This document shows positions 433 through 54,038 of a DNA stretch of 57,269 bases, piece after piece; position 1 is the first letter of the stretch, and every line of letters starts with the position of its first letter. The DNA lies in contig JACQVX010000187.1 in assembly GCA_016209495.1 (NCBI GenBank), forward strand, positions 1 to 57,269. The letters run 5' to 3'. A program made the translations under genes and the position numbers. Under the pieces are notes generated by a model. That model searched no databases. It worked only from the letters and a program-made list of their open reading frames with translations, and was not told where the DNA came from. This DNA comes from Planctomycetota bacterium. GTDB taxonomy: Bacteria; Planctomycetota; JACQVX01.

Positions 433-596
433 AGGTGCCCGACCTGTGGCGCCATCCCATCCCCGTCTCGGCGGCCCGCGACCCCTGCGGCGGGGGCGAC
501 CCTCCATCGCACGGATCCGTGTTACTCGTGGAGGCCAGCGAGCTTATAGGCAGACCCCCTTGTGGTGTCAAGACGATTCTGCTTTACTGCCGTACC

Positions 597-1388
597 TTGA
601 ACCTGGCGCTTGACCTGCTTCAGGCCTACTGGCGCGCCGCCGCGCAGGTGGCCATCCTCTACGGCGTGGTTTACGGCGTGCTCCGTTTCCTCAAGGGTAC
701 GCATGGAGAGGGGATCCTCAGGGGACTGGCCTTCCTCGCCCTGGTGGGATTCACCGTGCTCCTCGTCATCGCCCGCTGGGCCGGACTGGACCAGATCAAT
801 TTCCTGCTCACCGCCTTTCTCCAGACCTCGGTGTTCGCCCTCATCATCATCTTCCAGCCCGAGTTGCGGCGAGGCCTGGTCCGGATCAGCCAGACCCCTT
901 TCCTCAAGTTCATGTTCAAGGGCGAGACCGACCCCATCGGTGAGGTCGTGGACGCCGCGGCCCGCATGGCGCGGAACAAGGTGGGGGCCATCGTCGCCAT
1001 CGAGCGCGAGGACGGCCTCAAGGACTACATCGAACGGGGCACCTCCATCGACGCGGTGGTCTCGCAGAAGCTCCTCGAGTCCATCTTCTTCCCCGGGTCG
1101 CCGCTGCACGACGGGGCCATCGTCATCCGGGAGAACCGGGTGGCCGCCGCCGGCTGCCTCTTCCCGCTGACGGAGAACGTGGCGGCCATCAGGAACCTCG
1201 GCACCCGCCACCGGGCGGGCATCGGCCTGAGCGAGCAAGGGGACGCCATCGTCGTCATAGTGAGCGAGGAGACGGGGACCATCAGCCTCGCCCTCGGGGG
1301 GCAGCTCACGCGGAACCTCGACAAGGAATCCCTCGACCGGAGGCTCCGCGAGCTGTACGCCAACGCGTCCGACCGTGAGTCCGCCTGA
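597..1388 (+). CDS. cdaA: diadenylate cyclase CdaA (c-di-AMP synthase), membrane-anchored
   Basis: Frame 435..1388 encodes three N-terminal TM helices followed by a DAC domain with the DGA and RHR signatures (PLHDGAIVIRENRVAAAGCLFPLT; GTRHRAGIGLSEQGDAIVVIVSEETGTISLA). I set the start at the in-frame TTG 597 just before TM1; GTG 435 is the longest alternative. The stop overlaps the next ATG by 1 nt. Confidence 0.85.
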   Translation: MNLALDLLQAYWRAAAQVAILYGVVYGVLRFLKGTHGEGILRGLAFLALVGFTVLLVIARWAGLDQINFLLTAFLQTSVFALIIIFQPELRRGLVRISQTPFLKFMFKGETDPIGEVVDAAARMARNKVGAIVAIEREDGLKDYIERGTSIDAVVSQKLLESIFFPGSPLHDGAIVIRENRVAAAGCLFPLTENVAAIRNLGTRHRAGIGLSEQGDAIVVIVSEETGTISLALGGQLTRNLDKESLDRRLRELYANASDRESA

Positions 1389-17987: not shown

Positions 17988-18063
17988 GCTCAGGTAGCTC
18001 AGTTGGTAGAGCAGGGGACTGAAAATCCCCGTGTCGCCGGTTCAACTCCGGCCCTGAGCACCA
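17988..18063 (+). tRNA. tRNA-Phe (anticodon GAA)
   Basis: GCTCAGGTAGCTCAGTTGGTAGAGCAGGGGACTGAAAATCCCCGTGTCGCCGGTTCAACTCCGGCCCTGAGCACCA. The 7-bp acceptor stem is GCTCAGG/CCTGAGC and the anticodon loop is CT-GAA-AA. It has the T-loop GGTTCAACTCC and an encoded CCA. Confidence 0.9.
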
Positions 18064-18138: not shown

Positions 18139-19749
18139 TTGCGACCCCCCCTTGCCGCCGCCCTGGCCGCATCGGTCCTCGCCCTGGCCGGCGGCGAGGC
18201 GGCGGGGCCGCCCGTATTCAGCCACCGTCGCCATTTCCAGGCCACCGGCGACGAGGGCTGCGCCCCTTGCCACGGCGCGGCGAGCCGGGGAGAGGGTCTG
18301 GGGGCGCTGACACGCCGGGCCGTGGCATCCTGCGCGGGTTGCCACGACGGGCGGACCGCCCTCCCGGTGGAGGTCCGCTCGGAGGCGCGGCGGGTGGAGG
18401 ACCCATTCCCCGGATTCCTCCACCACGACCACAGGGCCCACGACTGCGGCCGATGCCACACCCTGGACGGCGCCAGGGACCGCCATGGCGGCCCGGGCTC
18501 CCTGGCCTCCGCCTGCGGGACCTGCCATGCGGAGCACCCGGTGAGGCAGTACCCGGACGGGGCGCGGCGGTGCGGCGCCTGCCACAACTCCCGGTTCCTC
18601 CAGACCGGCGACACGGAGGGGCGGGTCTTCCTCCACACGGAGCACCTCTTCGCGCGGGGCGCCGCCACCGCCGCCGAGTGCGCCGCATGCCACGCCACCG
18701 CCGCCGAATCGGACACGGCGGGGTCCTCGCTGGCGCCCCTGGACGAAACCTCCTGCCACCGCTGCCACCGGGCCGAGGCGGGGGCCGCGGTCCAGGGGCC
18801 ATGGCCCGCCGACCCGCGTCCCTTCCACGCCCCCGATCGGACCTCCCGGTTGCCTGGATTCAGCCACCGGCAGCACCTCCGGACCCCGGGGGGCTGCCTG
18901 GCCTGCCACGTCCCCGGCGAGGACAGGCACTACGTCTACGCCCCTGCGGGCATGCCCCTCTACGCGGGCTGCGGGGGCTGCCACGCCGGATGGCTCTCGG
19001 AGGTGGACGAGCATGGGCTCGGGGGCCGCGCCTGCTCGGTCTGTCATGGTCCCGATGGCGTGATCCCCCCGACCGTGAGCCTGGGACGGGTCGCCGTGGC
19101 CGGCTCCTCCTTCGGCACCGTGGCCCACCCCTTCGACCCGGAGGCCCACTCCCTGGGCCGGCCGTGCGAGCGGTGCCACCGGAGGCCTCCCGCCTCCACC
19201 CCGTCCCGCATCCGGAACGAGCGGTTCCGGCACGACGCGCACCTCCCGGCCGCCCTCCCGCCGGACCATGGAGACGAGGCCTGCCTGGGATGCCACCGGG
19301 CAGCCGCCTCGTCGGACGCGCCCGTAGACGAGCACGGGGCGCTCCTCGCGACCTGCAAGGCCTGCCACCCGGCGGGGGAGACGCCGCCGGTCCACCGCAC
19401 GGTGGCCCGCGCCGTCGCAGCCGTGGCCTTCTCCCACGTGGACCACCGAGGGCGGCCCTGTTCGGCCTGCCACGTCCTGGACGTGGCGCGCGGGCCCGCC
19501 TACGCGCCCGGCGTCCTGGATTGCGGGGGCTGCCACCTGGGCCACGCCGCGGTGGACCTGGGTCGCAGGCGCGCCTGCATGCGCTGTCATTCGGGGCGCG
19601 ACCTATACGGGGCGAGGGAGCCGCAGCCCGCGGTGGAACTCGATCTCCCCGCCACGGTCCACGACCTTTCGGGCGAGTGCCTCCCCTGCCACGGGCCTCC
19701 CGTCCCCGCGGAGGTCCCGGTCGTGACCCGATCGGGGGCGGGGCCGTGA
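18139..19749 (+). CDS. periplasmic multiheme c-type cytochrome (17 CxxCH motifs, c7/c3-like repeats)
   Basis: Signal peptide MRPPLAAALAASVLALAGGEAAG. I count 17 CxxCH motifs in the translation. They are interleaved with F-x-H-x-x-H motifs (FSHRRH, FLHHDH, FLHTEH, FSHRQH, FRHDAH, FSHVDH) as in polymerised c7-type domains. TTG start. Confidence 0.85.
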   Translation: MRPPLAAALAASVLALAGGEAAGPPVFSHRRHFQATGDEGCAPCHGAASRGEGLGALTRRAVASCAGCHDGRTALPVEVRSEARRVEDPFPGFLHHDHRAHDCGRCHTLDGARDRHGGPGSLASACGTCHAEHPVRQYPDGARRCGACHNSRFLQTGDTEGRVFLHTEHLFARGAATAAECAACHATAAESDTAGSSLAPLDETSCHRCHRAEAGAAVQGPWPADPRPFHAPDRTSRLPGFSHRQHLRTPGGCLACHVPGEDRHYVYAPAGMPLYAGCGGCHAGWLSEVDEHGLGGRACSVCHGPDGVIPPTVSLGRVAVAGSSFGTVAHPFDPEAHSLGRPCERCHRRPPASTPSRIRNERFRHDAHLPAALPPDHGDEACLGCHRAAASSDAPVDEHGALLATCKACHPAGETPPVHRTVARAVAAVAFSHVDHRGRPCSACHVLDVARGPAYAPGVLDCGGCHLGHAAVDLGRRRACMRCHSGRDLYGAREPQPAVELDLPATVHDLSGECLPCHGPPVPAEVPVVTRSGAGP

Positions 19750-19771: not shown

Positions 19772-20773
19772 GTGAGGACCCTGGCCTGGTTCGCCGCCAC
19801 CCTTGTCGCCGGCGTGGCCCTGGTCTACGCCTTCGAGCACCTCGGCGTGGCAAGGAGCCTGGAGCTCCGTCCCTGGCGTATCTGGGGCGCCGCGGCGGCC
19901 GGCCTCGTCCTCCTCTCGCCGGTGGCGCTCTACAGCCTGCGCAAGCGCAGCACCTACTTCCTCTACCTTCATTTCCGACGCATGGCGGACTTCGACGCCC
20001 GGGTGGCGGCCGTCCGCTCCGGGGTCATGGACCTGCAGCGGGAGGTCTATAACCGGGTCCATACCCGTCACCGGCCGATCCGCCGGCTGGCTCGCGGGGT
20101 CCTCCGGGCCCACGGGCTGGGCCGGTACTTCCGCGTGGTGGTGGAGGCGAAGCCCACGGGAGAGCCCGGCGGCGGGACGGTGCCCGAGGTCCGGCTGGTG
20201 AAGCGCGACCCCATGGGGCCGCTGTCCCTCTGGCTGAAGATGCACGTCTGGCTCGGTCTCCTGGCCTTCGTCGTCATCGTCCTGCACACCGGGCTCGAGG
20301 TGCACGGCGTCCTGGCCGGGGCGGCCCTGGTCCTCTTCGCCCTGGTGACGCTCACCGGGCTGGGGGGGGCGCTCCTGTTCCGGCTCCTGCCCCCGCGCCT
20401 CACCCCCCTGGAGGGGGAGTTGCTTCCGGACGAGATGCGCCGCAAGGGGGAGATGCTCGACGCCCGCATGGCGGAGGTCTGGCATGAGGCGCCCCAGGAG
20501 GTCCGGGAGGCCGCGGGCGGACGTCTGGCCGTCCTCTCCACCCGGGAGGCCTCGCGGCGCTCGGAGGCGCTCTGGTCGCTCCGCGGCGAGGTGGAGGCTG
20601 CCGCCCGGGCCCTGGGCGTCATGCTCGTGCAGCGCGCGCGCCTGGACGCCCGGTACCGCCTGGAGCGGCGCCACGAGGTCCTGCTGCACGGGTGGCTCGC
20701 CGTGCATGTCCCCCTGGCGGCGGCCATGGCGGTGGCCGTGGCGGCCCATGCGATCTCGTTCTGGTACTATTGA
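19772..20773 (+). CDS. integral membrane protein, candidate di-heme b-type electron carrier
   Basis: About five TM helices. Two helices each carry a His pair spaced exactly 14 residues apart (MHVWLGLLAFVVIVLH and VHVPLAAAMAVAVAAH). It lies 22 nt after the cytochrome gene and 3 nt before the next gene. Confidence 0.7.
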   Translation: MRTLAWFAATLVAGVALVYAFEHLGVARSLELRPWRIWGAAAAGLVLLSPVALYSLRKRSTYFLYLHFRRMADFDARVAAVRSGVMDLQREVYNRVHTRHRPIRRLARGVLRAHGLGRYFRVVVEAKPTGEPGGGTVPEVRLVKRDPMGPLSLWLKMHVWLGLLAFVVIVLHTGLEVHGVLAGAALVLFALVTLTGLGGALLFRLLPPRLTPLEGELLPDEMRRKGEMLDARMAEVWHEAPQEVREAAGGRLAVLSTREASRRSEALWSLRGEVEAAARALGVMLVQRARLDARYRLERRHEVLLHGWLAVHVPLAAAMAVAVAAHAISFWYY

Positions 20774-20776
20774 GCC

Positions 20777-22189
20777 ATGGCCCAGGCCGTGGCTGACCTC
20801 GTCTCCCGCCTCAAGGCCGTCCCCGTCCTGGGGGACCTCACCCCCGAGGGCTTCGAGGGGCTGGCCGCCCAGTGCACCGTGCGGGACGTGGCCGAGGGGG
20901 AAATCGTGTTCCGGGAGGGCGACTACGGCTTCGAGTTCTACGTCGTCCTCGAGGGCGCCGTCCGGGTGGTGAAGACCACCGCCACCGGCGGCGACGAGGT
21001 CCTGGCGACGATCCAGGCGGACGGGTTCTTCGGGGAGATGGGCCCCATGGTGGGCCAGCCCCGGAGCGCCACGGTCGTCGCGGGGCGTGCGAGCGTCCTC
21101 CTGGAGGTGGACCACGACGGCTTCAGCGCCCTGGTGGAGAAGGTCCCCTCCTTCAAGCGCACCATGGACGAGGCCTACCTGGACCGCGCCCTGGCCTCCT
21201 ACCTCCAGGTGATCCCCCTGTTCCGGGGCGTTCCCGCCGAGCGCCTCAAGGCCCTGGCCGCCGAGGCGCGGCTGGTGAGCTTCCAGAAGGACGCGGCGGT
21301 GATCCGGGAAGGCGAGGCGGGGGACGCCTTCTACCTGATCCGGCGCGGCTTCGTGAAGGTCACGCGGGCGATGGGCGGCGTGGCCAAGGTCCTGGCCTAC
21401 CTGCGGGAAAACGGGTGGTTCGGAGAGATGGCCCTCATCGACCGCACCCCTCGCACCGCGACCGTCACGGCCCTGGGCCCCCTGGAGGTGGTCCGCATCG
21501 GCCGGGACGCCTTCGAGGGGCTCTGCGCCGGGCACCCGGAGGTGCGGCGGACCATCGAGGCGTCCATGGCGGAGCGGCGGGCCGGGGAGCAGGACCTGGA
21601 TCAGGAGGGGCGCGACGAGAAGTACGCCGTGCTGGTGGAGAAGGGGCTCATCCAGGTCAACGAGGTCCTGGCCATCGACCTGGACACATGCACGCGCTGC
21701 GGGAATTGCGAGACGAACTGCGCCATCACCCACGACGGTTACTCCAGGCTGGTCCGCAAGGGGTTTCGCGTGAAGGACACCCTCTTCCCCGCCTCCTGCT
21801 ACATGTGCCCCGACCCGGAGTGCATGAAGGGGTGCCGCTTCGGCGTCCTGGCCAGGGAACGAGACGGCTCGGTCTACTTCCGGGACCACTGCACCGGCTG
21901 CCAGGCCTGCGTGAAGGCCTGCCCCTACGGGGTCATCACCATGGCGGAGCGCGCCGCGGGAGAGGGTGGCCCGCCCCGCCACCCGGTGATCGGCCTCCTC
22001 CAGGAGGCGGCCCGGGGACTCTTCGGATGGGGCGCGGGGCCCGCGGCCGTCGAGGAGGGCGAGAAGCCCCGGCGCATGGCGGTCAAGTGCGACATGTGCA
22101 AGGGCCTGGGCATGACCGCCTGTCTCTCCAATTGTCCCACGGGGTCCATCATGCGGGTCAGCCCCCAGTCGCTGCTCGACAGGCTCTAG
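20777..22189 (+). CDS. fusion of two cyclic-nucleotide-binding domains with a four-cluster [4Fe-4S] ferredoxin domain (NrfC/DmsB-like)
   Basis: Two cNMP motifs are present (FGEMGPMVGQPRSATVVA and FGEMALIDRTPRTATVTA). They are followed by CTRCGNCETNC, CYMCPDPECMKGC, CTGCQACVKACP and CDMCKG..ACLSNCP. There is no signal or Tat motif at the N-terminus. Confidence 0.85.
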   Translation: MAQAVADLVSRLKAVPVLGDLTPEGFEGLAAQCTVRDVAEGEIVFREGDYGFEFYVVLEGAVRVVKTTATGGDEVLATIQADGFFGEMGPMVGQPRSATVVAGRASVLLEVDHDGFSALVEKVPSFKRTMDEAYLDRALASYLQVIPLFRGVPAERLKALAAEARLVSFQKDAAVIREGEAGDAFYLIRRGFVKVTRAMGGVAKVLAYLRENGWFGEMALIDRTPRTATVTALGPLEVVRIGRDAFEGLCAGHPEVRRTIEASMAERRAGEQDLDQEGRDEKYAVLVEKGLIQVNEVLAIDLDTCTRCGNCETNCAITHDGYSRLVRKGFRVKDTLFPASCYMCPDPECMKGCRFGVLARERDGSVYFRDHCTGCQACVKACPYGVITMAERAAGEGGPPRHPVIGLLQEAARGLFGWGAGPAAVEEGEKPRRMAVKCDMCKGLGMTACLSNCPTGSIMRVSPQSLLDRL

Positions 22190-22204: not shown

Positions 22205-24061
22205 ATGACCCGCTTCGAGTTCTCCGTCCGCGCCAAGGGTCGCCCCCGCCCGGTGGAGGTGGAGGGACCGCGCGTCCGCATCGGCCGTGTGCAGGTGGAC
22301 AACGAGGTGGTGGCCGACGAGGAGACCGTGGACGCCCACCACGCGGAGCTCCGCTCGCGGGACGGGGGCTTCGTCATCGCCGACCGGGCGAGCGCCGTGG
22401 GCACCCTGGTCAACGGCCGGCCCGTGGACGGGGAGCACCCCCTGGCCGATGGGGACGTGGTCCACCTGGGGGCCTACCGCATGGCCGTGCGGCTGGCCCC
22501 GGACGGGGTCTTCCGCGCGGAACTGGAGCCGGACCCTCCCCTCTCTCTGCGCAAGCTGGCGCGGGAGCAAGGCCCCCGGCGGAGGACCGGGGGACGGCCG
22601 CCCCTGCGCTGGATCCTGGGGGGGGCGGCCCTGTGCGCGGCGGTGCTCGCCCTGGCGGCGGTCCCCCTGGCGGGGTGGCACGCGGCCTTCCTTCCGGCCC
22701 CCATCTCGCCGGCGCACCGCGACGGCCCCGGGGCCCCATCGGGCTGCGGGGCCTGCCACACGCCCTTCGGCGGGGGCTTCGCCGAGGGCTGCATGGCGTG
22801 CCACGGCCAGGTCCTGGCGGGGGGGCCCCACGGGGCGGCCGCCTTCCCGGCGGCGGGGGCCAACGAGTGCAGCGGATGCCACGCGGAGCACGAGCGCATC
22901 GAGGGCGGCCTCCTGGGGGCTGGGACCCTGCCCGGGACCTGCCGAGGCGCGGGCTGCCACGAGGAGGCGCACCCGGCGCCGCGGCCCGTGGCCACGGCCC
23001 TCGTCCCCGTGCCAGGGAACCGCCCCCCCTTCTCCCACGCGGACCACGCCCGGGGCCCGAGCGCCCCCGGCTGCGCCGGGTGCCACGCCCCGGGTCCTGC
23101 GGCAGGGGGAGACTGGCGGGACCACCGACCGATGGACTACGAGGGTTGCGTCCGCTGCCACGACTCCTGGGCCGTCGCCGATCACGGCTTCCCGAGGTAC
23201 TGCGGCGACTGCCACGCCCGGCCAGCGGAGCCGGAACTGACGCGGGTCCGGCGCGAGGTGGCGGTGCCCGCCGCCTTCGCCTTCGGAGGCTTCCGCCACG
23301 ACCTCCCGGTGGGGGCCTGCGGGGGCTGCCACCTCCGCCCGGACGTGGAACTGGAGAGCCGCTTCCGTGGGACCCCGTTTCGCCACGCGACCCACCTGGT
23401 GGCGGGGCCCCGCGGGGTGGGGGCCGGGGGGACCGCCGAGTGCGCCTCATGCCACGGGGAGGTGGCCCGCTCGACCGAGCTGCCCTCGCGGGCCTCGCCG
23501 GGGGCCGAGGCCCCCATGACCTGGGACCCGTCGAGTTGCAAGGGTTGCCACCTCGAGTCCCCCCACATCACCCGCTTCGACGTGGTGGCTCGCCCCTCGG
23601 TTCGATTCGGCCACGACGGGCACGCAGGGGCGGGCCTGGACTGCGCCGCCTGCCATGCCCCGGGCGAGGAACCCGACCGGCCGACCCTCCTCGCCGGCGT
23701 GGCCGACTGCACCGCCTGTCACGCGGGCCATGCCCGCACGCCGCGTCTGGAGGCCTGCGCCCGTTGCCACGCTGGGGCGGATCTCTACGCCCGCGGTGTC
23801 CCGGTGCGGAGGTTGGAGGTCCCGGAGGGCTTCGACCACGCCACCTGGGACCACCGGCGCTCCCCCTGCGAGGCCTGTCACCCGGGGGCCTCCGCCGCGA
23901 CCACCATCGAGGACGTCCCGACGGCGAGGGCCGACTCGGAGGCCTGTACCGGCTGCCACGAACCGGCCCACCTCGCCGGCCCCTGTCTGGACTGCCACGC
24001 CTACCATGAGGCGGCGACCGGGGCCGGCGTCTCCGCCCCTCGGGAGCCCGGGGGCCACTGA
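22205..24061 (+). CDS. FHA-like domain / single TM / multiheme c-type cytochrome fusion (15 CxxCH + 1 CxxxxCH)
   Basis: The N-terminal ~100 aa look FHA-like (VRIGR...HHAEL...FVIADRASAVGTLVNGRPV...GDVVHLG). The TM is WILGGAALCAAVLALAAVPLAGW. Then I count 15 CxxCH motifs plus CRGAGCH, with FSHADH/FRHATH/FGHDGH-type motifs. Confidence 0.85.
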   Translation: MTRFEFSVRAKGRPRPVEVEGPRVRIGRVQVDNEVVADEETVDAHHAELRSRDGGFVIADRASAVGTLVNGRPVDGEHPLADGDVVHLGAYRMAVRLAPDGVFRAELEPDPPLSLRKLAREQGPRRRTGGRPPLRWILGGAALCAAVLALAAVPLAGWHAAFLPAPISPAHRDGPGAPSGCGACHTPFGGGFAEGCMACHGQVLAGGPHGAAAFPAAGANECSGCHAEHERIEGGLLGAGTLPGTCRGAGCHEEAHPAPRPVATALVPVPGNRPPFSHADHARGPSAPGCAGCHAPGPAAGGDWRDHRPMDYEGCVRCHDSWAVADHGFPRYCGDCHARPAEPELTRVRREVAVPAAFAFGGFRHDLPVGACGGCHLRPDVELESRFRGTPFRHATHLVAGPRGVGAGGTAECASCHGEVARSTELPSRASPGAEAPMTWDPSSCKGCHLESPHITRFDVVARPSVRFGHDGHAGAGLDCAACHAPGEEPDRPTLLAGVADCTACHAGHARTPRLEACARCHAGADLYARGVPVRRLEVPEGFDHATWDHRRSPCEACHPGASAATTIEDVPTARADSEACTGCHEPAHLAGPCLDCHAYHEAATGAGVSAPREPGGH

Positions 24062-24137: not shown

Positions 24138-26120
24138 TCAGCGCGGGCCCAGCAGGCCCCCCAGGACGCGGACCAGCTCCGCCGGGTCCACCGGCTTCGC
24201 CAGGTAGCCGGCCGCGCCGCGGCGAGGGGCCTCCAGGGCCAGGAACGGGTCGTGGAACTGGGTCATGAGCACCACGGCCACCGAGGGGTGCCGCGAGCGG
24301 ACCCGGCCGAGCAGGTCCAGGCCGCCCATGTCGGGCATCCGGATGTCCGCCAGGACCACCCCGTAGGGGCGCTCCCCCAGGGCTCGGAGGGCCTCGGCCC
24401 CCGAGGCCACGGCGCGCACCTCGCAGCCCAGCTCCGGGACGCCGCCCAGCATCCGGACCAGAAGGGACCGGACCTCCGCGTCGTCGTCCACCACCAGGAC
24501 GGAGCGCTCCTCGTCCGCCGGGCGGGGGCGGAGCATGCCGAGGAGGGTGCCCTGGACCGCCTCCACGGCGAAGGGCTTGAAGTGCACCGGGCGGCCGGTG
24601 GCCTCGAGGGACCGCACCACCTGCTCGTCCGCCACCCGGCCGGTGATGAAGACCACCCGCCGCGCCGCCTCGGGCCGTTCCCGCTCCAGCCTGCGGTAGA
24701 GGTCGTGGCCGCTCCCGTCCGGGAGGGCCACGTCCACGATCAGGGCGTCGAAGGCGCTCGAGTCCAGCGCGGACAGGGCGGCGGCCACCCCCGGGACCGC
24801 GTGGGCGGCGCAGCCCCACTCCTTCAGGTAGCGGACCATGAGCTCCCGGATATCCGCCTCGTCCTCCACCACCAGGACCCGGTGGCCGGCCAGGACCCCC
24901 GCCTCCTCGGGGCGTCCCACCGGTTCCGGCGCCTCCCGCAGGGGAAGCTCCAGCACGAAGAGGGTCCCCCCGCCGGGCCGCCGTTCGGCCCAGATCCGCC
25001 CCCCGTGGTCCTCGAGGATCCGGCGGCAGATAGGGAGCCCCAGCCCGGTCCCCTTCCCCGGGGGCTTGGTGGTGTAGAAGGGCTCGAAGACGCGCTCCAG
25101 GGCGTCCTCCGGGATGCCGCAGCCCGAGTCCTCCACCTCGACCCGCAGGCCGACCCCGGGGGAGCGTCGGGTCCGTACCGCGACGCGTCGCCTCGGCTGG
25201 CCGTCCACCGCGTCGGCCGCGTTCTTCACCAGGTTGACCAGCACCTGCTGCATCTGGAAGGGGTCCAGGGCGGTGGCGGGCAGGTCCGGTTCCAGGTCGC
25301 GCACCAGCTCCAGGCCGTAGCCCGCCAGGAGCTGTTCCTGCTCGTCCAGGGTCCGCTCCACCAGGGCGTTGATCCGGGTGGGGACCGGGGCGGGGGTGCG
25401 CTTGCGGGTGAAGAGGAGCAGCTCCTGCACCACCCGCTGGGCGCGGGAGGCCGCCCCGTGGATCCGTCCCAGGTCGCGGCGCATGGCCTCGTCCTCCACC
25501 GTGGCCATGGCCAGGTCCGCGTACCCCAGGATCACCGTGAGGGGGTTGTTCAGCTCGTGGGCGATGCCCGCCACCACGTTCCCCAGGGTGGCCAGCTTCT
25601 CCATCTTGACCAGCTCCCCCTGGGCCGCTCGCAGTTCGCGGACCGTGCCCTCCAGCTCCCGGGAGAGGGACTGGGCCCGCTCCTTCTCCTCCCGCTCGCC
25701 TCGCAGGAGCCCCTCGTACTTGGCGTGCATCCGGGCCTCGGCGGTCAGGTCCCGGAGGTGAACCAGGGCCCCCGCCGGGGCGCCCGAACCGTCGAAGAGC
25801 GGCAGGGCGCGGCTCACGAGGGAGACGGGGTTGCCCTCCCGATCGCTCCCGGAGACCTCCCGCAGCTCCACCGCACGGTCCGAGGGGGCGGCGCGCGAGC
25901 GCAGCTCCTCCTCGGCCCAGCGGTCGAGGACCAGGACCTCCCGGGCGCGGGGGCGCGCCAGGAGCTCCGGACCCGTGGCCCGCGAGAGGGGCAGCAGGGC
26001 CCGGTTGTGGGCCACGATGCGAAGCTCCCGGTCCACGATGTAGACCGGGTCCGAGACGGCCTCCAGGAGCCCCGGGTTGTCCAGGAAAGGTTGCAAGGAG
26101 TGGTGGCCGCGGGCCGGCAT
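24138..26120 (-). CDS. hybrid sensor histidine kinase (PAS - HisKA - HATPase - REC - REC)
   Basis: H-box GIAHELNNPLT, and the HATPase N/G boxes (LVNLVKNAADA, DSGCGIP, GKGTGLGL). Two receiver domains are present (VLVVEDEADIRE...DVALPDGSG and VLVVDDDAEVR...DIRMPDMGG). The ATG overlaps the upstream TGA by 1 nt. Confidence 0.9.
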   Translation of the reverse strand: MPARGHHSLQPFLDNPGLLEAVSDPVYIVDRELRIVAHNRALLPLSRATGPELLARPRAREVLVLDRWAEEELRSRAAPSDRAVELREVSGSDREGNPVSLVSRALPLFDGSGAPAGALVHLRDLTAEARMHAKYEGLLRGEREEKERAQSLSRELEGTVRELRAAQGELVKMEKLATLGNVVAGIAHELNNPLTVILGYADLAMATVEDEAMRRDLGRIHGAASRAQRVVQELLLFTRKRTPAPVPTRINALVERTLDEQEQLLAGYGLELVRDLEPDLPATALDPFQMQQVLVNLVKNAADAVDGQPRRRVAVRTRRSPGVGLRVEVEDSGCGIPEDALERVFEPFYTTKPPGKGTGLGLPICRRILEDHGGRIWAERRPGGGTLFVLELPLREAPEPVGRPEEAGVLAGHRVLVVEDEADIRELMVRYLKEWGCAAHAVPGVAAALSALDSSAFDALIVDVALPDGSGHDLYRRLERERPEAARRVVFITGRVADEQVVRSLEATGRPVHFKPFAVEAVQGTLLGMLRPRPADEERSVLVVDDDAEVRSLLVRMLGGVPELGCEVRAVASGAEALRALGERPYGVVLADIRMPDMGGLDLLGRVRSRHPSVAVVLMTQFHDPFLALEAPRRGAAGYLAKPVDPAELVRVLGGLLGPR

Positions 26121-30020: not shown

Positions 30021-30075
30021 AAGCGTGGCGGCCTTTGGGGGGACAGGGGGCGGCCGCGCTGGAAGAGGGGGGCCG

Positions 30076-33000
30076 GTGCGTCTTCCGGGACGCTGGCATG
30101 CCTTCGGGCTCTGCCTCACCGCGCTGCTCGTGTCGAGCTGCGCCGGAGGGGGAGTGTCGGGTCCCCCTGGCACCCTCACCATCACCCTGGTCGATGCCCC
30201 CTCGCTCCTCCCGCACCTGGCCGAGGTGCGCGTGGGTATCGCGCGACTGGAGATCGTCGCGGCCGTGGAGGGAGGGGACCTGGTGCTGCCCCTCCTGGAT
30301 CGGCCCACGGACCCGCTCGTCTACGACCTCCTCGCCCTCCAGGGCGGTGTCACGGCCCAGGTGCTCCAGACGGAGCTGCCCGCCGCGACGTATCGGGAGC
30401 TGAGGCTCCATCTCGCGGGAGACCAGGCGCGCGTCACACTGGTCCAGGGCGACGGGGTGCGGGTCTTCAGCCCCTCCGACGGCAGCCTGATCCTGACGGC
30501 GTCCGCCCTGTCCGCCATCGTGCTCCCCTTCCAGGAGCCGGTGGTCGTGCTGCCCGGGCGGCTGACCGAACTGGTGCTGGACTTCGACGTGAGCGCCTCC
30601 CTCCGGGCCGTCCCCACGGACTACGCGAGCATCGCGGAGGTCCGGGCCCTGGAGCTGGGACCCGAGCTGCGCGTCTCCAACGTCCAGACCACCGCCAGCC
30701 TTCGGGGGACCGTCCTTTCCGACGCCGGGACACCCGGCAGCGCCATCGACGACACCGGGCTGGACGACGTGCACCTCACCGTGGCCACCGAGGGGGCGGA
30801 GGTGGCCCATACCGCTACCGCCCCAGGCGGTGGCTATCTCCTGGCCGGCCTCCCCGCGGGGGATTACCACCTGAGACTGGAGAGGCAGGGGCACCGGACC
30901 ACCTTCGCCTCGGTGTCCCTGGCGGCGGGCGAGTCGCGCCTGGACCTCGTCATGCCCCTCGCCTCGGGGTCCGACCCCGGGACCTGGACCCTGACGGCGT
31001 CGGCCGGCGCCCCTGCCGCCCGGGCCTTCCACACCACCGTGTGGACCGGGGGCCAGGCGCTGAGCTGGGGCGGCCAGACCGCCATGGGCGTCACCGCGAC
31101 GGGGGCCCGCTACGACCCGGCCACCGACGGCTGGACGCCCACCTCGACGGCGGGCGCGCCCGCGGCGCGCAGCTTTCACACGGCGGTCTGGACGGGCTCC
31201 CGCATGGTGGTCTGGGGAGGCCGGGACGCCGCCGGGACGATGGTGGGGAGCGGGGCCCGCTACGACCCGGCGACGGACGCGTGGACACCCACCGCCCTCA
31301 GCGGTGCGACCCTCCCGCGGGCCTTCCACACGGCGGTGTGGACCGGGACCCGGATGGTGGTCTGGGGTGGCATCGATTCGACCGGCCAGCACTCGTCGGC
31401 CGGCGGGGTCTACGACCCGCTCCAGGACACCTGGACCCCTGCGGCGTCGGCCGGCGCCCCGGGCTCGCGGCAGGAGCACACCGCCGTGTGGGCCGCGGGT
31501 CGCATGGTGGTCTGGGGCGGGCGCAACGGCGGCACGCTCCACGGCAGCGGCGGGGTCTACGACCCGGTCGCGGACCTCTGGTCGCCCACGTCCGCGGCGG
31601 GCGCGCCGAGCCCGCGCTTCCTCCACGCGGCGGTGGCCGCCGGCCGCGTCATGGTGGTATGGGGCGGGCGAGAGGCCGGCGGCCAGGCCACCGATTCGGG
31701 GGCCGTCTACGACCCGGACCTGGACACCTGGGTCCCGACCGCCGCCGCGGGCGCCCCTCCGGGCCGCATGCGCCACGCGGCCGTGTGGACCGGCGTCGAG
31801 GTGCTGTTCTGGGGTGGCCAGCGTGGCGTCTACCTCCTGGGGTCGGGCGGCCGCTACGAGCCCGGGACCTCCACCTGGGGAACGATGAACGAGGACGGGG
31901 GGCCGTCGGGTCGAATCCAGCACACGCTCACATGGACTGGCCGGGAGGCCCTGGTCTGGGGTGGACGGACCGGGGCCGGCCTGATGGGAGACGGGGCACG
32001 ATACGACCCGCACGGCACCCTCCCACCCCCGGAGCCTCAGGGACCTCCGCAGAACGGGAGCATCCGCATCGACCTGACGGACCCCTCGCCCATCATCCGG
32101 GACACGACCCCCCCTGCGATCCAGGCCCCGCCGGACCTCCTGGTGGAGTGCGCCGGCCGCGGAGGCCAGGCCGTGTACCTGGGCAGGGCGACGGTCATGG
32201 ATGACGTGGACCCGACGCCCTCCCTGGTGAACGACGCCCCGGCCCTCTTCACCATGGGCGTGACGGTCGTGACCTGGACGACCTGGGATGCCGCCGGCAA
32301 CCTGGCCACCGCCTCCCAGCGGGTCACGCTCCAGGACACGACGCCGCCGGCCCTGGCGGCGCCGCCGGACCTGGTGGTGGAGTGCGCGGGCCCTGCGAGC
32401 CACGCCGTGGCGATCGGCCAGGCCACCGCCACGGACCTCTGCGATCCGGCCCCGGCGGTCTCGAGCGACGCCCCGGCCCTCTTCCCCATGGGCGTGACGG
32501 TCGTCACCTGGACCGCCACGGACGGCGCGGGGAACCGAGCCACCGCCTCCCAGCGGGTCACGCTCCAGGACACGACGCCGCCGGCCCTGGCGGCGCCGCC
32601 GGACCTGGTGGTGGAGTGCGCGGGCCCTGCGAGCCACGCCGTGGCGATCGGCCAGGCCACGGCCACGGACCTCTGCGATCCGGCCCCGGCGGTCTCCAAC
32701 GATGCGCCGGGCTACTTCCCCCACGGGACCACCAGCGTCCGGTGGACGGCCCTCGACGCCAGCGGCAACCTGGCGGTGGCGCTGCAGCGTGTGACCTTGC
32801 TGGATCGCACCGCCCCGGTGGTGAGCGTCGAGTGGGAGCGACTGGGGCTGACCGGCGACCGCAGGGGCGACCGCGCCACCTTCCGCGTCCATGTCACGGC
32901 CCGGGATGCCTGCGACCCGGCTCCGGCCGTGCAGGCGCTCCTGGCCATCCCGGAGATGCCAGAGGGCACGACGGTGCACGTGAGGACAGAGGAGGCAGAC

Positions 33001-33453
33001 GACGGAGCGCTGGAGGAAACCCTGCGTTTCTGGCCCGGACGCGCGAAGATCGACCTGGAGGGCGCGGACGCCGCGGCCGTCCGGGCCCGGCTGGACACGG
33101 TCCTCGCGGCCGGCGGCGTGGCCGTGTCGGACGGCCAGACCATCGAGGTGCGCCTCAATCGCCATCCACACGACTGGAGGCGCTTCCAGTGGCTGGAGGG
33201 TTCGGTCTACCGCGTGGAGGGCATGGACAACGTCCGGCTGATGGTCTCGGCGACGGACGCCTCCGGCAATCGCGCCACGGCCGAGGCGGAGACCGCCCTC
33301 GAGCCCCGTGCCCACGGTGGCGGCGGTGACGACGACGGGGAAGGGGAGGATGACGAGGACGCCCACGACCACGCCCACGACCACGACGACGCCCACGACC
33401 ACGACGACGCCCACGACCACGCCCACGCCCACGCCCACGCCCACGACGACTAG
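30076..33453 (+). CDS. large lipoprotein: DUF4382-like N-domain, carboxypeptidase-regulatory-like domain, Kelch-type beta-propeller repeats, three HYR-like modules, C-terminal His/Asp-rich tail
   Basis: GTG 30076 gives (M)RLPGRWHAFGLCLTALLVSSC, a lipobox. There are seven or so repeats of the type FHTAVWTG.RMVVWGG....G.RYDP..D.W.P (about 30980-32010). Three DTTPPA..APPDL.VECAG... modules follow (about 32100-32810). The tail is DAHDHAHDHDDAHDHDDAHDHAHAHAHAHDD. Confidence 0.8.
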   Translation: MRLPGRWHAFGLCLTALLVSSCAGGGVSGPPGTLTITLVDAPSLLPHLAEVRVGIARLEIVAAVEGGDLVLPLLDRPTDPLVYDLLALQGGVTAQVLQTELPAATYRELRLHLAGDQARVTLVQGDGVRVFSPSDGSLILTASALSAIVLPFQEPVVVLPGRLTELVLDFDVSASLRAVPTDYASIAEVRALELGPELRVSNVQTTASLRGTVLSDAGTPGSAIDDTGLDDVHLTVATEGAEVAHTATAPGGGYLLAGLPAGDYHLRLERQGHRTTFASVSLAAGESRLDLVMPLASGSDPGTWTLTASAGAPAARAFHTTVWTGGQALSWGGQTAMGVTATGARYDPATDGWTPTSTAGAPAARSFHTAVWTGSRMVVWGGRDAAGTMVGSGARYDPATDAWTPTALSGATLPRAFHTAVWTGTRMVVWGGIDSTGQHSSAGGVYDPLQDTWTPAASAGAPGSRQEHTAVWAAGRMVVWGGRNGGTLHGSGGVYDPVADLWSPTSAAGAPSPRFLHAAVAAGRVMVVWGGREAGGQATDSGAVYDPDLDTWVPTAAAGAPPGRMRHAAVWTGVEVLFWGGQRGVYLLGSGGRYEPGTSTWGTMNEDGGPSGRIQHTLTWTGREALVWGGRTGAGLMGDGARYDPHGTLPPPEPQGPPQNGSIRIDLTDPSPIIRDTTPPAIQAPPDLLVECAGRGGQAVYLGRATVMDDVDPTPSLVNDAPALFTMGVTVVTWTTWDAAGNLATASQRVTLQDTTPPALAAPPDLVVECAGPASHAVAIGQATATDLCDPAPAVSSDAPALFPMGVTVVTWTATDGAGNRATASQRVTLQDTTPPALAAPPDLVVECAGPASHAVAIGQATATDLCDPAPAVSNDAPGYFPHGTTSVRWTALDASGNLAVALQRVTLLDRTAPVVSVEWERLGLTGDRRGDRATFRVHVTARDACDPAPAVQALLAIPEMPEGTTVHVRTEEADDGALEETLRFWPGRAKIDLEGADAAAVRARLDTVLAAGGVAVSDGQTIEVRLNRHPHDWRRFQWLEGSVYRVEGMDNVRLMVSATDASGNRATAEAETALEPRAHGGGGDDDGEGEDDEDAHDHAHDHDDAHDHDDAHDHAHAHAHAHDD
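32305..32696 (+). repeat. intragenic direct repeat: 158-nt blocks 32305-32462 and 32539-32696 (234-nt period), 1 mismatch
   Basis: Manual alignment: both copies read GCCACCGCCTCCCAGCGGGTCACGCTCCAGGACACGACGCCGCCGGCCCTGGCGGCGCCGCCGGACCTGGTGGTGGAGTGCGCGGGCCCTGCGAGCCACGCCGTGGCGATCGGCCAGGCCAC[C/G]GCCACGGACCTCTGCGATCCGGCCCCGGCGGTCTC. This is HYR modules 2 and 3. Confidence 0.85.
33319..33450 (+). repeat. coding low-complexity / microsatellite-like tract (GAC/CAC/GCC units) encoding the Asp/His tail
   Basis: GCCCACGACCACGACGAC occurs twice and GCCCAC occurs four times consecutively, among other units, immediately before the TAG stop at 33451. Confidence 0.8.
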
Positions 33454-52520: not shown

Positions 52521-54038
52521 ATGCCCACCAGGCCCTGTCCCCAGACCGTCGCGGCCATCGACCTCGGCTCGAACAGCTTCAACCTCCTGGTCGCCAGCCT
52601 CGCCGGGGGCCAGATCCAGACCATCGATCGTCTGCGCGAGCGCATCGCGCTGGCCGCGGGCGTCGACGCGGACGGGAACCTGACGGAGGAGGTGCAGGGC
52701 CGCGCCCTCGGCTTCCTGGGGCGCGTCGCCCAGCGGGTCAAGGACCTCCCGGCGGCGGGCATCCGTGCCGTGGGCACGAACGCGCTCCGGGCCGCCCGCA
52801 ACGCCGGGGCCTTCCTCGAGCGCGCCGAGCGGGCCCTCGGCTATCCCATCGAGGTGGTCTCGGGACGCGAGGAGGCGCGGCTGGTCTACCTGGGCGTGGC
52901 CCACGGCCTCGAGCCGGACCCCGGGAGGCGGCTGGTACTGCACATCGGCGGGGGCAGCACCGAGTGCGTGATCGGCGAGCAACTCGAGCCCCTGGAGACC
53001 GATTGCCTGGAGATGGGCTGCGTCACGTGGAGCCGGAGGTTCTTCCCGGACGGCCGCATCACCGCCGGAGCCCTGCGCCGGGCCGAGATCGCCGCGGGCG
53101 TGGAATTGCAAACCATCGAGCGGCGCTACCGCGCCCTGGGCTGGACGAGATGCATCGGCTCGGCCGGGACCATCCGCGCCGTAGACGACGTGCTCCATGC
53201 GAACGGGTGGAGTCACGACGGCATCTCGGCGGAGGGATTGGCGCGGTTGAGGCGCGCCGTCGTCGAGGCGGGACAGGTGGACCGGCTCTCGTCCCTGCGC
53301 GGCCTCCCGGAGGACCGCCCGGACGTGCTGGCGGGAGGCCTCGCCATCCTCATCGCCGCCTTCGAACTCTGCGGGATCGACCGGATGCGCGTCTCGGCCG
53401 GGACCCTTCGGGAGGGGGTCATCCATGAACTCTGGGCCCGTCACCGGCAGGAGGACGTCCGCCACCGTACGGTCCGCGGCCTCGTGGAACGCTGGGGCAC
53501 CGACACCGCGCAGGCGACGCGCGTCGAGCGGACCGCCCTGACCCTGCTCGACCAGGCCGGTCCGGGGTGCTCCGCGGAAGGCGAGACGCCCCGGGTCTTC
53601 CTCTCCTGGGCCGCGAGGCTGCACGAGATCGGCCTCGGACTCTCCTACAGCGGCTACCACAAGCACGGGGCCTACATCGCGGCGAACGCCAACATGCCCG
53701 GCTTCTCGCGCCAGGACCAGGCGCTACTCGCGGCCCTGATCCGCACCCACCGCCGCAAGCTGGACCTGGAGGCCTTCGTGGGGCTCCCGCCCGCGTGGAT
53801 CGCGCTCGCCCCGCGCCTGTCGGTCCTCCTCCGGCTCGCGGTCCACCTCAACCGCAGCCGGAGTGCGCGCCAGCTCCCGCCCTCGTTCTCCCTGCGGGCG
53901 GCCTGGCCCCACCTCGAGCTCGGGCTGCCGCCGGGCTGGCTGGACGGCCACCCGCTCACGCGCGCCGACCTGGAGGAAGAGTCCGCCTTCCTCGGGGCCG
54001 TGGGTGTGGAGCTGCTCCTGGTGGAGGCGGGCCCCTAG
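52521..54038 (+). CDS. ppx: exopolyphosphatase / guanosine pentaphosphate phosphohydrolase (Ppx/GppA family)
   Basis: AAIDLGSNSFNLLV, RAVGTNALRAARN, VSGREEARLVYLGV and LHIGGGSTE, plus a C-terminal HD-like region (ARLHEIGLGLSYSGYHKHGAYI). ATG 52521. Confidence 0.9.
   Translation: MPTRPCPQTVAAIDLGSNSFNLLVASLAGGQIQTIDRLRERIALAAGVDADGNLTEEVQGRALGFLGRVAQRVKDLPAAGIRAVGTNALRAARNAGAFLERAERALGYPIEVVSGREEARLVYLGVAHGLEPDPGRRLVLHIGGGSTECVIGEQLEPLETDCLEMGCVTWSRRFFPDGRITAGALRRAEIAAGVELQTIERRYRALGWTRCIGSAGTIRAVDDVLHANGWSHDGISAEGLARLRRAVVEAGQVDRLSSLRGLPEDRPDVLAGGLAILIAAFELCGIDRMRVSAGTLREGVIHELWARHRQEDVRHRTVRGLVERWGTDTAQATRVERTALTLLDQAGPGCSAEGETPRVFLSWAARLHEIGLGLSYSGYHKHGAYIAANANMPGFSRQDQALLAALIRTHRRKLDLEAFVGLPPAWIALAPRLSVLLRLAVHLNRSRSARQLPPSFSLRAAWPHLELGLPPGWLDGHPLTRADLEEESAFLGAVGVELLLVEAGP

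Follow-up and report, generated by a model that had tools for sequence, protein, structure and literature searches.

Two preprints describe the systems closest to the one considered here. In Ferrigenium straubiae, a membrane-associated nonahaem cytochrome c (NHC) with a cytosolic FHA domain is encoded beside a protein with five transmembrane (TM) helices and a [4Fe-4S] protein; the combination of FHA and multihaem domains was stated to be previously unreported, no redox motif was reported in the 5-TM protein, and a CymA-like link to quinones was suggested (10.64898/2026.01.22.701106). The ptdABCDEFG cluster encodes an FAD/NAD(P) oxidoreductase (PtdC), a 4Fe-4S protein that binds cyclic nucleotides (cNMPs; PtdE), a ferric-reductase-like TM protein (PtdF) and a decahaem cytochrome (PtdG), and was introduced as a previously undescribed cluster of unknown function that resembles porin-cytochrome complexes (10.1101/2023.11.21.568154). 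We describe here a related locus in a 57,269-nt stretch of DNA from a Planctomycetota bacterium (assembly GCA_016209495.1, contig JACQVX010000187.1, positions 1 to 57,269; hereafter the window), in which one gene encodes an FHA domain joined through a single TM helix to a cytochrome with 16 haem motifs. This architecture—FHA, one TM helix, periplasmic multihaem region—and the membership of the protein in a module with its neighbours are near-certain. As to its role, we favour with moderate confidence that the FHA domain is a pseudo-FHA and serves for docking; the haem wire that carries it would be the anchored part of a transmembrane conduit, gated by cNMPs and probably independent of quinones.

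The FHA-cytochrome gene is the last of four on the + strand, separated by gaps of 22, 3 and 15 nt, which encode in order a soluble 17-haem cytochrome, a 5-TM membrane protein, an iron-sulphur (FeS) subunit with cNMP-binding domains, and the FHA-cytochrome (Table 1). The operon is bounded by a tRNA-Phe gene upstream, where ribF also lies, and by a convergent gene for a hybrid histidine kinase downstream. A scan of the operon for terminators and promoters gave no terminator-like site and one promoter-like site upstream of the tRNA-Phe gene, and was uninformative.

Compared by published description rather than by sequence, NHC resembles the window protein in its cytoplasmic N-terminal FHA domain, single TM helix and periplasmic multihaem part, and in its 5-TM and cytoplasmic 4Fe-4S neighbours; none of the three NHC proteins has a signal peptide. 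It differs in having nine haems rather than 16 and in its gene order, and no second, 17-haem cytochrome is described. The present analysis also departs from that account in finding four invariant His where no redox motif was reported in the 5-TM protein, and in considering the pocket residues of the FHA domain, which were not examined there. Ptd, compared on the same basis, shares with the window the core triad of cNMP-FeS protein, ferric-reductase-like TM protein and periplasmic multihaem cytochrome, together with a flavoprotein link in relatives, and its proposed role resembles extracellular electron transfer. No FHA domain is mentioned for Ptd, however, and the window operon is without the pentahaem PtdA, the porin PtdB, the flavoprotein PtdC and the tetrahaem PtdD; the Ptd cytochrome is a decahaem as against 16 haems, and PtdE is described with two clusters as against four Cys groups (16 invariant Cys) in the window. 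Ptd is described from sequence only. Set beside these systems, the window module has no porin, flavoprotein, adaptor or kinase in cis. A full-text literature search combining 'FHA domain' and 'multiheme cytochrome' returned no paper beyond the NHC preprint. The window protein is a new divergent variant of this just-noticed kind, with 16 haems, the type A gene order defined below and a 17-haem partner.

Relatives of the FHA-cytochrome were sought by an exhaustive hidden Markov model (HMM) search of 1.84 billion cluster representatives, which gave 168 proteins at E <= 1e-30. Among the 150 of these that were listed, about 91 clusters (50% identity) are complete, with an FHA domain, a single TM helix around residues 135-190 and 13-16 haem motifs, the number being exactly 15 in most. 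The closest are 26-33% identical to the window protein, and a cluster look-up names the relatives only as 'FHA domain-containing protein [Planctomycetota bacterium]' or 'hypothetical protein'. Less exhaustive searches did not suffice. A word-indexed homologue search from the single protein found two true relatives, the 46-sequence profile was swamped by generic multihaem cytochromes, and a scan of GTDB species representatives with FHA-motif patterns (the window genome is not among them) found mostly unrelated FHA proteins and two full-length relatives only. The combination of FHA and cytochrome, which had been singled out in a sequence-only reading of the window, is neither singular nor unreported, since it defines a populous family and was noted in a 2026 preprint.

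The first in-frame start of the gene is the ATG at 22205, and a TAG stands in frame 18 nt upstream, so that an N-terminal extension is impossible. None of the downstream in-frame starts yields a signal peptide; the only candidate nearby, GTG codon 147, lies inside the TM helix. Alignments of the relatives begin at residue 1, and a second, independent assembly (SRR12113390) contains an identical protein. That the FHA part is coding follows from the G+C content at third codon positions (GC3), which over codons 1-110 is 0.955 but 0.845 and 0.464 in the remaining two frames; the window as a whole is about 75% G+C.

Only one hydrophobic segment is present in the protein, and the sequence that precedes it, RKLAREQGPRRRTGGRPPLR, is Arg-rich. 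The same bias runs through the family: the 15 residues before the helix contain a mean of 3.07 Lys plus Arg and the 15 after it 1.20, with more before than after in 77 of 89 proteins. Three natural fusions fix the topology independently, because each of them has its haem stretch between two TM helices and its cytoplasmic-type domains beyond these. These are P0161 (4xFHA-TM-6 haem motifs-TM-Fer4-Pyr_redox, in one polypeptide), a protein of locus L153 (L153:1456-4095; 2xFHA-TM-6 haems-TM-Fer4-Pyr_redox) and one of locus L005 (L005:7869-10196; FHA-TM-10 haems-TM-canonical FHA). That one chain unites a periplasmic cytochrome loop with an NAD(P)H oxidoreductase of flavin/FeS type, as in P0161 and L153, is unusual by itself.

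All 16 haem motifs—15 CxxCH and one CRGAGCH (CX4CH, C246)—lie beyond residue 180, the first about 20 residues past the TM helix; shuffled versions of the protein had 0.11 CxxCH on average and 3 at most. Pfam recognises Cytochrome_C7 (59.9 bits, cutoff 24.8), Cytochrom_CIII (37.7 bits, cutoff 22.9) and Mtrc-MtrF_II-IV_dom (33.9 bits), and the AlphaFold2 (AF2) model of this region is of medium confidence. Across 46 relatives 15 haem motifs are invariant, as are 13 further His, with one more His near-invariant, a pattern consistent with mostly bis-His, low-potential haems. The CX4CH site is an ordinary CxxCH in relatives, and the sixteenth motif (C594) is an extra, C-terminal one that has no counterpart in the two closest relatives, P0002 and P0003. 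HmcA of Desulfovibrio has 16 haems, and the same number here hinted at that identity; it was rejected on a score of 18.8 bits with NCBIfam NF045713, for which the cutoff is 400. An identity with NapC/NirT/CymA/NrfH was rejected as well, with no Cytochrom_NNT among the Pfam families listed down to E = 1 and no NrfH at E <= 0.01.

The sequence-only reading had the protein start without a signal peptide, cross the membrane once with the N terminus inside, and carry 15 CxxCH plus CRGAGCH outside. All of this holds: the upstream TAG and the start-codon scan leave no place for an ordinary Sec-exported cytochrome beginning downstream, RKLAREQGPRRRTGGRPPLR, the positive-inside bias and the fusions agree on the orientation, and the haem count needs only the refinement that 15 sites are conserved in the family and C594 is extra.

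The N-terminal domain has a genuine FHA fold. The Pfam FHA profile (PF00498) scores 47.4 bits with the whole protein and 51.0 bits with residues 1-132 (cutoff 20.7), the match spanning residues 24-89 and profile positions 1-67 of 67; Yop-YscD_cpl (PF16697) scores 36.0-40.0 bits (cutoff 33.2). In the AF2 model, built with a 46-sequence alignment, residues 1-110 are all-β with a pLDDT of 91-95, and form ten long strands and a short one, 11 in all. Foldseek against the PDB gave 89 matches at E <= 1e-3, and 50 of the 50 listed are FHA-domain structures. Those matched include GarA (6i2p; E 1.3e-7, target-normalised TM-score 0.76, root mean square deviation (rmsd) 2.1 Å), FhaA (3oun; target-normalised TM-score 0.82), Rv0020c, Rv1747 and YscD (4a0e; E 6.4e-5); for the FHA domains of GarA, FhaA, Rv0020c and YscD the Foldseek prob is 1.00, the target-normalised TM-score 0.70-0.82 and the rmsd about 2.1 Å.

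Canonical FHA domains carry the motifs GR, SxxH and NG (PMC3162421). Aligned to GarA and by hmmalign, the window domain has the signature R-D-H-V instead of R-S-H-N: the G27-R28 dipeptide is present, SxxH is broken by Asp43 in place of Ser with His46 kept, and NG is broken by Val65-Gly66, with Val in place of Asn. Among 91 relatives, the phosphate-binding Arg of position 28 is mostly replaced (Thr 48, Ser 26, Ala 7, Arg 6), and so are the phosphate-binding Ser of position 43 (Ala 68, Ser 10, Asp 2) and the peptide-contacting Asn of position 65 (Thr 53, Ser 18, Ala 6, Leu 5, Val 4, Ile 3; Asn at most 2). The residues of the fold, in contrast, are kept, namely Gly at positions 27 (90), 66 (91) and 71 (87), the structural His at 46 (83) and Thr at 67 (80). 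As three binding residues are lost and the fold residues retained, the cytochrome-borne domain is, judged by its residues, a pseudo-FHA, in which the fold rather than the binding of phosphothreonine (pThr) appears to be under selection. The relatives' domains also have a conserved Cys at query position 33 (64 of 91) and another at 47 (48 of 91), and the window domain is without both (N33, A47); this cytoplasmic pair could be redox-sensitive or metal-binding.

The remaining operon proteins were examined in the same way. The first, the 17-haem cytochrome, begins with the signal-like sequence MRPPLAAALAASVLALAGGEAAG and is read as Sec-exported; it scores 163 bits with the family cytochrome HMM, being a paralogue of the periplasmic part of the FHA-cytochrome, and a 17-haem gene stands at the equivalent position in loci L001, L102, L120, L123 and L125. 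In the FeS subunit Pfam finds cNMP_binding (145 bits in two stretches) and Fer4 families. Its 16 invariant Cys form four groups (CxxCxxCxxxC, CxxCx4CxxxC, CxxCxxCxxxCP and CxxCxnCxxxCP), and its profile matches in the PDB are ArrB (6cz7_B, E 2.7e-19) and, for the cyclic-nucleotide-binding (CNB) domains, PKA/PKG regulatory domains; it also resembles the HycB and HydN ferredoxins. The Cys pattern, with the similarity to ArrB, HycB and HydN, makes a wire of four [4Fe-4S] clusters likely. Both CNB phosphate-binding cassettes (FGE...PR[ST]A) read as intact, FGEMGPMVGQPRSAT and FGEMALIDRTPRTAT, and the subunit, having no hydrophobic segment or twin-arginine leader, is taken to be cytoplasmic. None of the four operon proteins is covered by an NCBIfam model.

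The membrane protein has predicted TM segments at residues 3-22, 37-55, 151-173, 178-205 and 305-331. Two of these helices each carry a His pair with a spacing of 14 residues (H-x13-H), TM3 with H158 and H172 and TM5 with H312 and H326. Two stacked b haems, such as those of cytochrome b and the NADPH oxidase (NOX)/ferric-reductase domain, are classically held by H-x13-H on each of two helices. The four His are invariant in sets of 9, 55 and 80 homologues of 22-36% identity, although the invariance of H158 is partly ascertainment, because this residue—and none of the other three—was included in the locus search pattern. From the four His we infer a candidate carrier of two b haems. Pfam matches of the window protein are all sub-threshold (Ferric_reduct, 15.5 bits with a cutoff of 28, and DUF4405), as are those of 55 relatives at E <= 0.01 (DUF4405 23, Ferric_reduct 10, Ni_hydr_CYTB 4). 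Its AF2 model has a pLDDT of 73 and a pTM of 0.54; Foldseek of this model against the PDB gave nothing below E = 0.27 and a profile search of PDB sequences chance matches only, and a structural assignment to the ferric-reductase domain (FRD) or cytochrome b561 was therefore dropped. T211 follows TM4 in a loop and was weighed as a possible conserved pThr site, but was rejected, since only 34 of 80 sequences have Thr there.

The membrane-protein profile, run against metagenomes, gave 387 relatives; 80 loci were retrieved and annotated by local HMMs on six-frame open reading frames (ORFs). In the first two relatives found, the genes run membrane protein, cNMP-FeS, FHA-cytochrome. In most loci with enough sequence to tell, a cNMP-FeS gene adjoins that of the membrane protein and a multihaem cytochrome gene follows the latter, and the core triad is linked in most of the 80 metagenomic loci and in two Thermoanaerobaculia genomes. 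Two layouts recur. Type A, to which the window belongs, has the order [FHA-FHA] [17-haem cytochrome] membrane protein, FeS protein, [FHA-TM-15 haems], and is represented by L001, L003, L097, L102, L120, L123, L125 and L150. Type B has an FeS protein (often with an N-terminal Pyr_redox FAD/NAD(P)H fusion), the membrane protein, and a cytochrome of 10 haems that may or may not carry FHA; it includes the Thermoanaerobaculia loci L004 and L005 and many others, and its homology is seen with our own HMMs (membrane protein 100-170 bits, FeS protein 170-310, cytochrome 60-85). NHC corresponds to type B loci with a 10-CxxCH cytochrome and a degenerate FHA domain. Many fetched loci are arranged cyt4 / cyt5 / MEMB / cyt10 / FES. 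The module is spread over Acidobacteriota (Thermoanaerobaculia), Planctomycetota, the literature-reported Ferrigenium lineage and many metagenomes. In the window the tRNA-Phe gene (GAA anticodon) lies directly upstream of the 17-haem cytochrome gene, where type A relatives have a canonical FHA-FHA gene; the window operon may have lost this adaptor gene through rearrangement at the tRNA.

Flavoproteins recur as fusions or neighbours in these relatives. L004 and L005 have Pyr_redox-cNMP-Fer4 fusions, L001 encodes an FHA-FAD_binding_6-NAD_binding_1-Fer2 protein (FHA-FNR-like), and Pyr_redox_2 with three FHA domains and Pyr_redox with FHA occur in L151 and L097, respectively. Their recurrence supports a path from NAD(P)H through flavin, FeS and haem b to haem c.

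The FHA domains of the module fall into two kinds. All of the N-terminal cytochrome-borne domains in the loci are degenerate (TAHT, VSHT, RAHT, RAHA, REHA, TTHT, TSHT, RSHT and RDHV). Outside the cytochrome and FeS ORFs, canonical RSHN is found in 22 of 32 accessory FHA domains, and at least 5 of the 10 non-RSHN ones come from contig-truncated cytochrome ORFs. The soluble partners that carry FHA are FHA-FHA proteins, DUF4388-FHA, FHA-flavoproteins and a C-terminal FHA on the FeS subunit, and these are mostly canonical; on the FeS subunit the signature is RSHN in 3 of 6, RSQN in 2 and RGHN in 1. The two kinds occur together. In a set of 25 distinct loci, each with 1.5 kb or more of sequence upstream of the module, a cytochrome with FHA is accompanied by a canonical FHA partner in 6 of 8 (two have none) and a cytochrome without FHA in 1 of 17 (16 have none; Fisher p = 0.001), the window being one of the two exceptions.

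Of 36 loci that span 9 kb or more, at least 10 have a Hanks-type kinase gene next to the module (for example L102, L120, L123, L150, L114, L163, L004 and L161). A Pfam scan of seven ORFs identified six as Pkinase, several of them receptor-like (FGE-sulfatase, TPR or PD40), and the seventh (L097) as the Pyr_redox-FHA flavoprotein. The kinases directly downstream of type A FHA-cytochromes (L102:8743-11805, L150:4956-8090 and equivalents) are about 1020-1045 residues long with a C-terminal FGE-sulfatase-like part, and this form is recurrent.

These partners bear on the proposal, made in the sequence-only reading, that the FHA domain reads pThr and so ties protein phosphorylation to the haem wire. 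Phospho-signalling is a real theme of the module family, and to that extent the proposal stands, since kinases and canonical FHA proteins adjoin the module elsewhere; the reader domains are on the partners, however, and not on the cytochrome, and the window has a degenerate FHA domain with no kinase in 57 kb. That the cytochrome's own FHA is a working pThr reader, through which a Ser/Thr kinase would directly gate or localise the periplasmic haem wire, is compatible with G27-R28 and H46 and with the kinases and canonical FHA proteins encoded alongside, but we judge it unlikely. The phosphate-contacting Ser and the peptide-contacting Asn, two of three binding residues, are replaced in the window protein, and the loss is family-wide with the fold maintained. 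The identification of residues 1-110 as FHA was borne out by Pfam, AF2 and Foldseek, and the residue calls of that reading (G27-R28 and H46 present, Asp43 for Ser, Val65 for Asn) were right; its own caveat, that a divergent FHA may not bind pThr, is the better account of the pocket.

In the role that we favour, the gene product would be the haem-wire subunit, anchored in the membrane and lying in the periplasm, of a four-gene module that transfers electrons across the membrane. Electrons would pass from the cytoplasmic subunit, with its two cNMP-binding domains and four [4Fe-4S] clusters, to two b-type haems held by the four invariant His of the 5-TM protein, then to the anchored 16-haem cytochrome and from there to the soluble 17-haem cytochrome. 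Because the FeS subunit of relatives is fused to or beside an NAD(P)H flavoprotein, outward, quinone-bypassing flow is the most likely direction, and NAD(P)H or another low-potential cytoplasmic donor would feed periplasmic or extracellular acceptors. The FHA domain is, by analogy, most likely a phospho-independent docking platform, as in SctD/YscD/MxiG. It would hold cytoplasmic partners at the conduit—here the FeS subunit, and elsewhere canonical FHA adaptors or FHA-tagged flavoproteins. In the window, cyclic nucleotides would exert control through the FeS subunit; a second regulatory layer may be added in many relatives by canonical FHA proteins and a neighbouring Ser/Thr kinase.

The analogy with type III secretion is close in layout. 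The FHA domains of SctD/YscD/MxiG/PrgH, single-pass proteins of the inner-membrane ring, have their pThr residues missing or misplaced, do not bind pThr, and dock SctK without phosphorylation (PMC3162421; 10.1101/2020.09.22.308627). Like the window protein, these have an N-terminal cytoplasmic FHA domain, a single TM helix and a periplasmic domain, which in the window protein is instead a cytochrome. The window FHA is closer in sequence to actinobacterial GarA, FhaA and Rv1747 than to SctD, and no type III secretion families were found among the window genes scanned.

The electron path follows a familiar logic. In the Hmc/Tmc complexes of Desulfovibrio and the Cbc complexes of Geobacter, periplasmic multihaem c-type cytochromes are joined to cytoplasmic FeS proteins via a membrane cytochrome b, and the window module shares with them the low-potential c3/c7-type multihaem proteins, a putative b-type membrane subunit and cytoplasmic FeS. 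No family-level homology with Hmc/Tmc was found, however, and the searches run gave no relation between the membrane subunit and HmcC/E or TmcC; to our knowledge the Hmc/Tmc and Cbc complexes are without cNMP-binding or FHA domains. In NADPH oxidases and other FRD proteins, His pairs on TM3 and TM5, about 13-14 residues apart, hold two stacked b haems that take electrons across the membrane from a cytoplasmic NAD(P)H flavoprotein. The window membrane protein has its two His pairs on the same helices and sub-threshold Ferric_reduct matches, but five predicted TM helices rather than six; the flavoproteins of the module family are separate from this membrane domain, and four FeS clusters would lie between; the acceptor would be a multihaem cytochrome and not O2 or Fe(III).

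Several observations weigh against a docking domain on an outward conduit. Searches of the 57-kb window found no kinase, second FHA or flavoprotein partner. The window FHA keeps Arg28, unlike most relatives, and Asp at the Ser position is no proof that phosphopeptide binding is lost. Haem b binding is suggested by the His pattern, H158 with the ascertainment noted above, in a protein that reaches no curated threshold and has no structural neighbour. All members of the module are known from their sequences only, and for Ferrigenium the flow has been proposed to be inward, from Fe(II) oxidation (10.64898/2026.01.22.701106).

A second alternative, to which we give slightly less credence than to the pThr reader, is that the protein is a quinol dehydrogenase or quinone reductase like CymA, NapC or NrfH, its TM helix and membrane-proximal haem exchanging electrons with quinones and its neighbours being accessory. 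An N-terminal TM helix followed by a periplasmic multihaem domain is the layout of such enzymes, and a role of this kind was put forward for NHC by its authors (10.64898/2026.01.22.701106). Neither Pfam nor NCBIfam places the protein in these families, as described above, its first haem motif is some 20 residues past the helix, and the four-His membrane protein, four-cluster ferredoxin and NAD(P)H flavoprotein fusions point instead to a path into the cytoplasm. The 5-TM protein itself may react with quinones.

Less probable again is a redox sensor, in which the periplasmic haems would report redox state to FHA and cNMP domains that control other targets. Domains of signalling type abound in the module and its surroundings (FHA, cNMP-binding, adjacent kinases), and in the window a hybrid histidine kinase converges on the operon with a probable PP2C partner-switching set next to it; against this, a sensor needs far less than the 33 haems of the two cytochromes, the four FeS clusters and the di-haem-type membrane protein, and fusions to NAD(P)H-oxidising flavoproteins argue for turnover. 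An artefact—a mis-called start, or a chimeric assembly fusing an FHA gene to that of a Sec-exported cytochrome—has next to no probability, given about 91 cluster representatives of the same architecture aligned from residue 1, the identical protein in SRR12113390, the stop 18 nt upstream and the GC3 of the FHA part.

The docking reading can be taken further, though only as a tentative suggestion. The module may be a split NOX-like, quinone-independent NAD(P)H:multihaem-cytochrome oxidoreductase (flavin, four FeS, two b and 15-33 c haems) that exports electrons across the inner membrane. Its input part would be recruited via FHA contacts, with the pseudo-FHA as docking site, canonical FHA adaptors and receptor-type kinases giving phospho-control, and cyclic nucleotides acting as a second gate. 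If this were true, it would be the first respiratory-type electron conduit with its assembly switched by Hanks-kinase/FHA signalling.

Table 1. Features of the window discussed in the text; positions are counted from its first letter
Feature	Positions	Strand	Basis or remark
FHA-TM-16-haem protein, 618 residues	22205..24061	+	FHA, one TM helix, multihaem cytochrome (ORF, Pfam, AF2, family search)
FHA domain, residues 1-110, cytoplasmic, degenerate pThr pocket (R28, D43, H46, V65)	22205..22534	+	Pfam, AF2, Foldseek, alignments
Single N-in signal-anchor TM helix, residues 132-161, Arg-rich segment before it	22598..22687	+	Hydropathy (residues 133-165), AF2 helix (132-161), charge bias
Periplasmic multihaem region, residues 181-598, c7/c3-like units	22745..23998	+	Haem motif positions, Pfam
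Soluble multihaem cytochrome, first operon gene, 536 residues, 17 CxxCH	18139..19749	+	Cytochrome_C7, 82.4 bits
5-TM integral membrane protein, 333 residues, PtdF-like, candidate di-haem b carrier	19772..20773	+	TM prediction, invariant His
cNMP-binding FeS subunit, 470 residues, PtdE-like, two CNB domains and DmsB/ArrB/HycB-like ferredoxin	20777..22189	+	Pfam, PDB profile
tRNA-Phe (GAA)	17988-18063	+	Directly upstream of 17-haem cytochrome gene
Hybrid histidine kinase, PAS-HisKA-HATPase and two receiver domains	24138-26120	-	Converges on the end of the FHA-cytochrome gene, 76-nt gap
dCache-HAMP-GAF-SpoIIE (PP2C) protein, 1104 residues	26120-29913	-	Pfam
Diadenylate cyclase (DAC domain) gene	435-1388	+	Messenger differs from the one that a cNMP-binding FeS subunit would sense
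Protein of >1000 residues with DUF4382, CarboxypepD_reg, Kelch propeller and HYR	30025-33453	+	Domains typical of secreted/surface proteins
Protein of >1000 residues with fn3, He_PIG and Big_9 Ig-like repeats	54035-57226	-	Domains typical of secreted/surface proteins

Other genes of the window are included in Table 1. The convergent hybrid histidine kinase could regulate the operon. In the PP2C protein beside it, the C-terminal ~300 residues have no Pfam match and look by eye to be of RsbW/SpoIIAB type, and a 160-residue ORF that follows, also without a Pfam match, reads as STAS-type antagonist-like with a C-terminal CxxC...CxxC pair; the two are probably a partner-switching set adjoining the histidine kinase.

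Multihaem conduits drive extracellular electron transfer, metal cycling and syntrophy, and their control is usually thought of as transcriptional. The family described here places three post-translational control devices on one conduit, namely cNMP-binding domains, FHA domains and, in relatives, adjacent Ser/Thr kinases. Both descriptions found in the searchable literature are preprints that call the cluster novel and its function unknown. To these the present analysis adds the four-His signature of a putative di-haem protein, four probable FeS clusters instead of two, NAD(P)H flavoprotein fusions that suggest the donor, and the distribution of FHA domains, canonical mostly on the soluble partners and degenerate on the cytochrome. 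Direct pThr reading is unlikely for the window FHA; the combination of signalling domains with a respiratory-type conduit is nonetheless an unusual and testable one and, if confirmed, would represent a new way of gating transmembrane electron flow.

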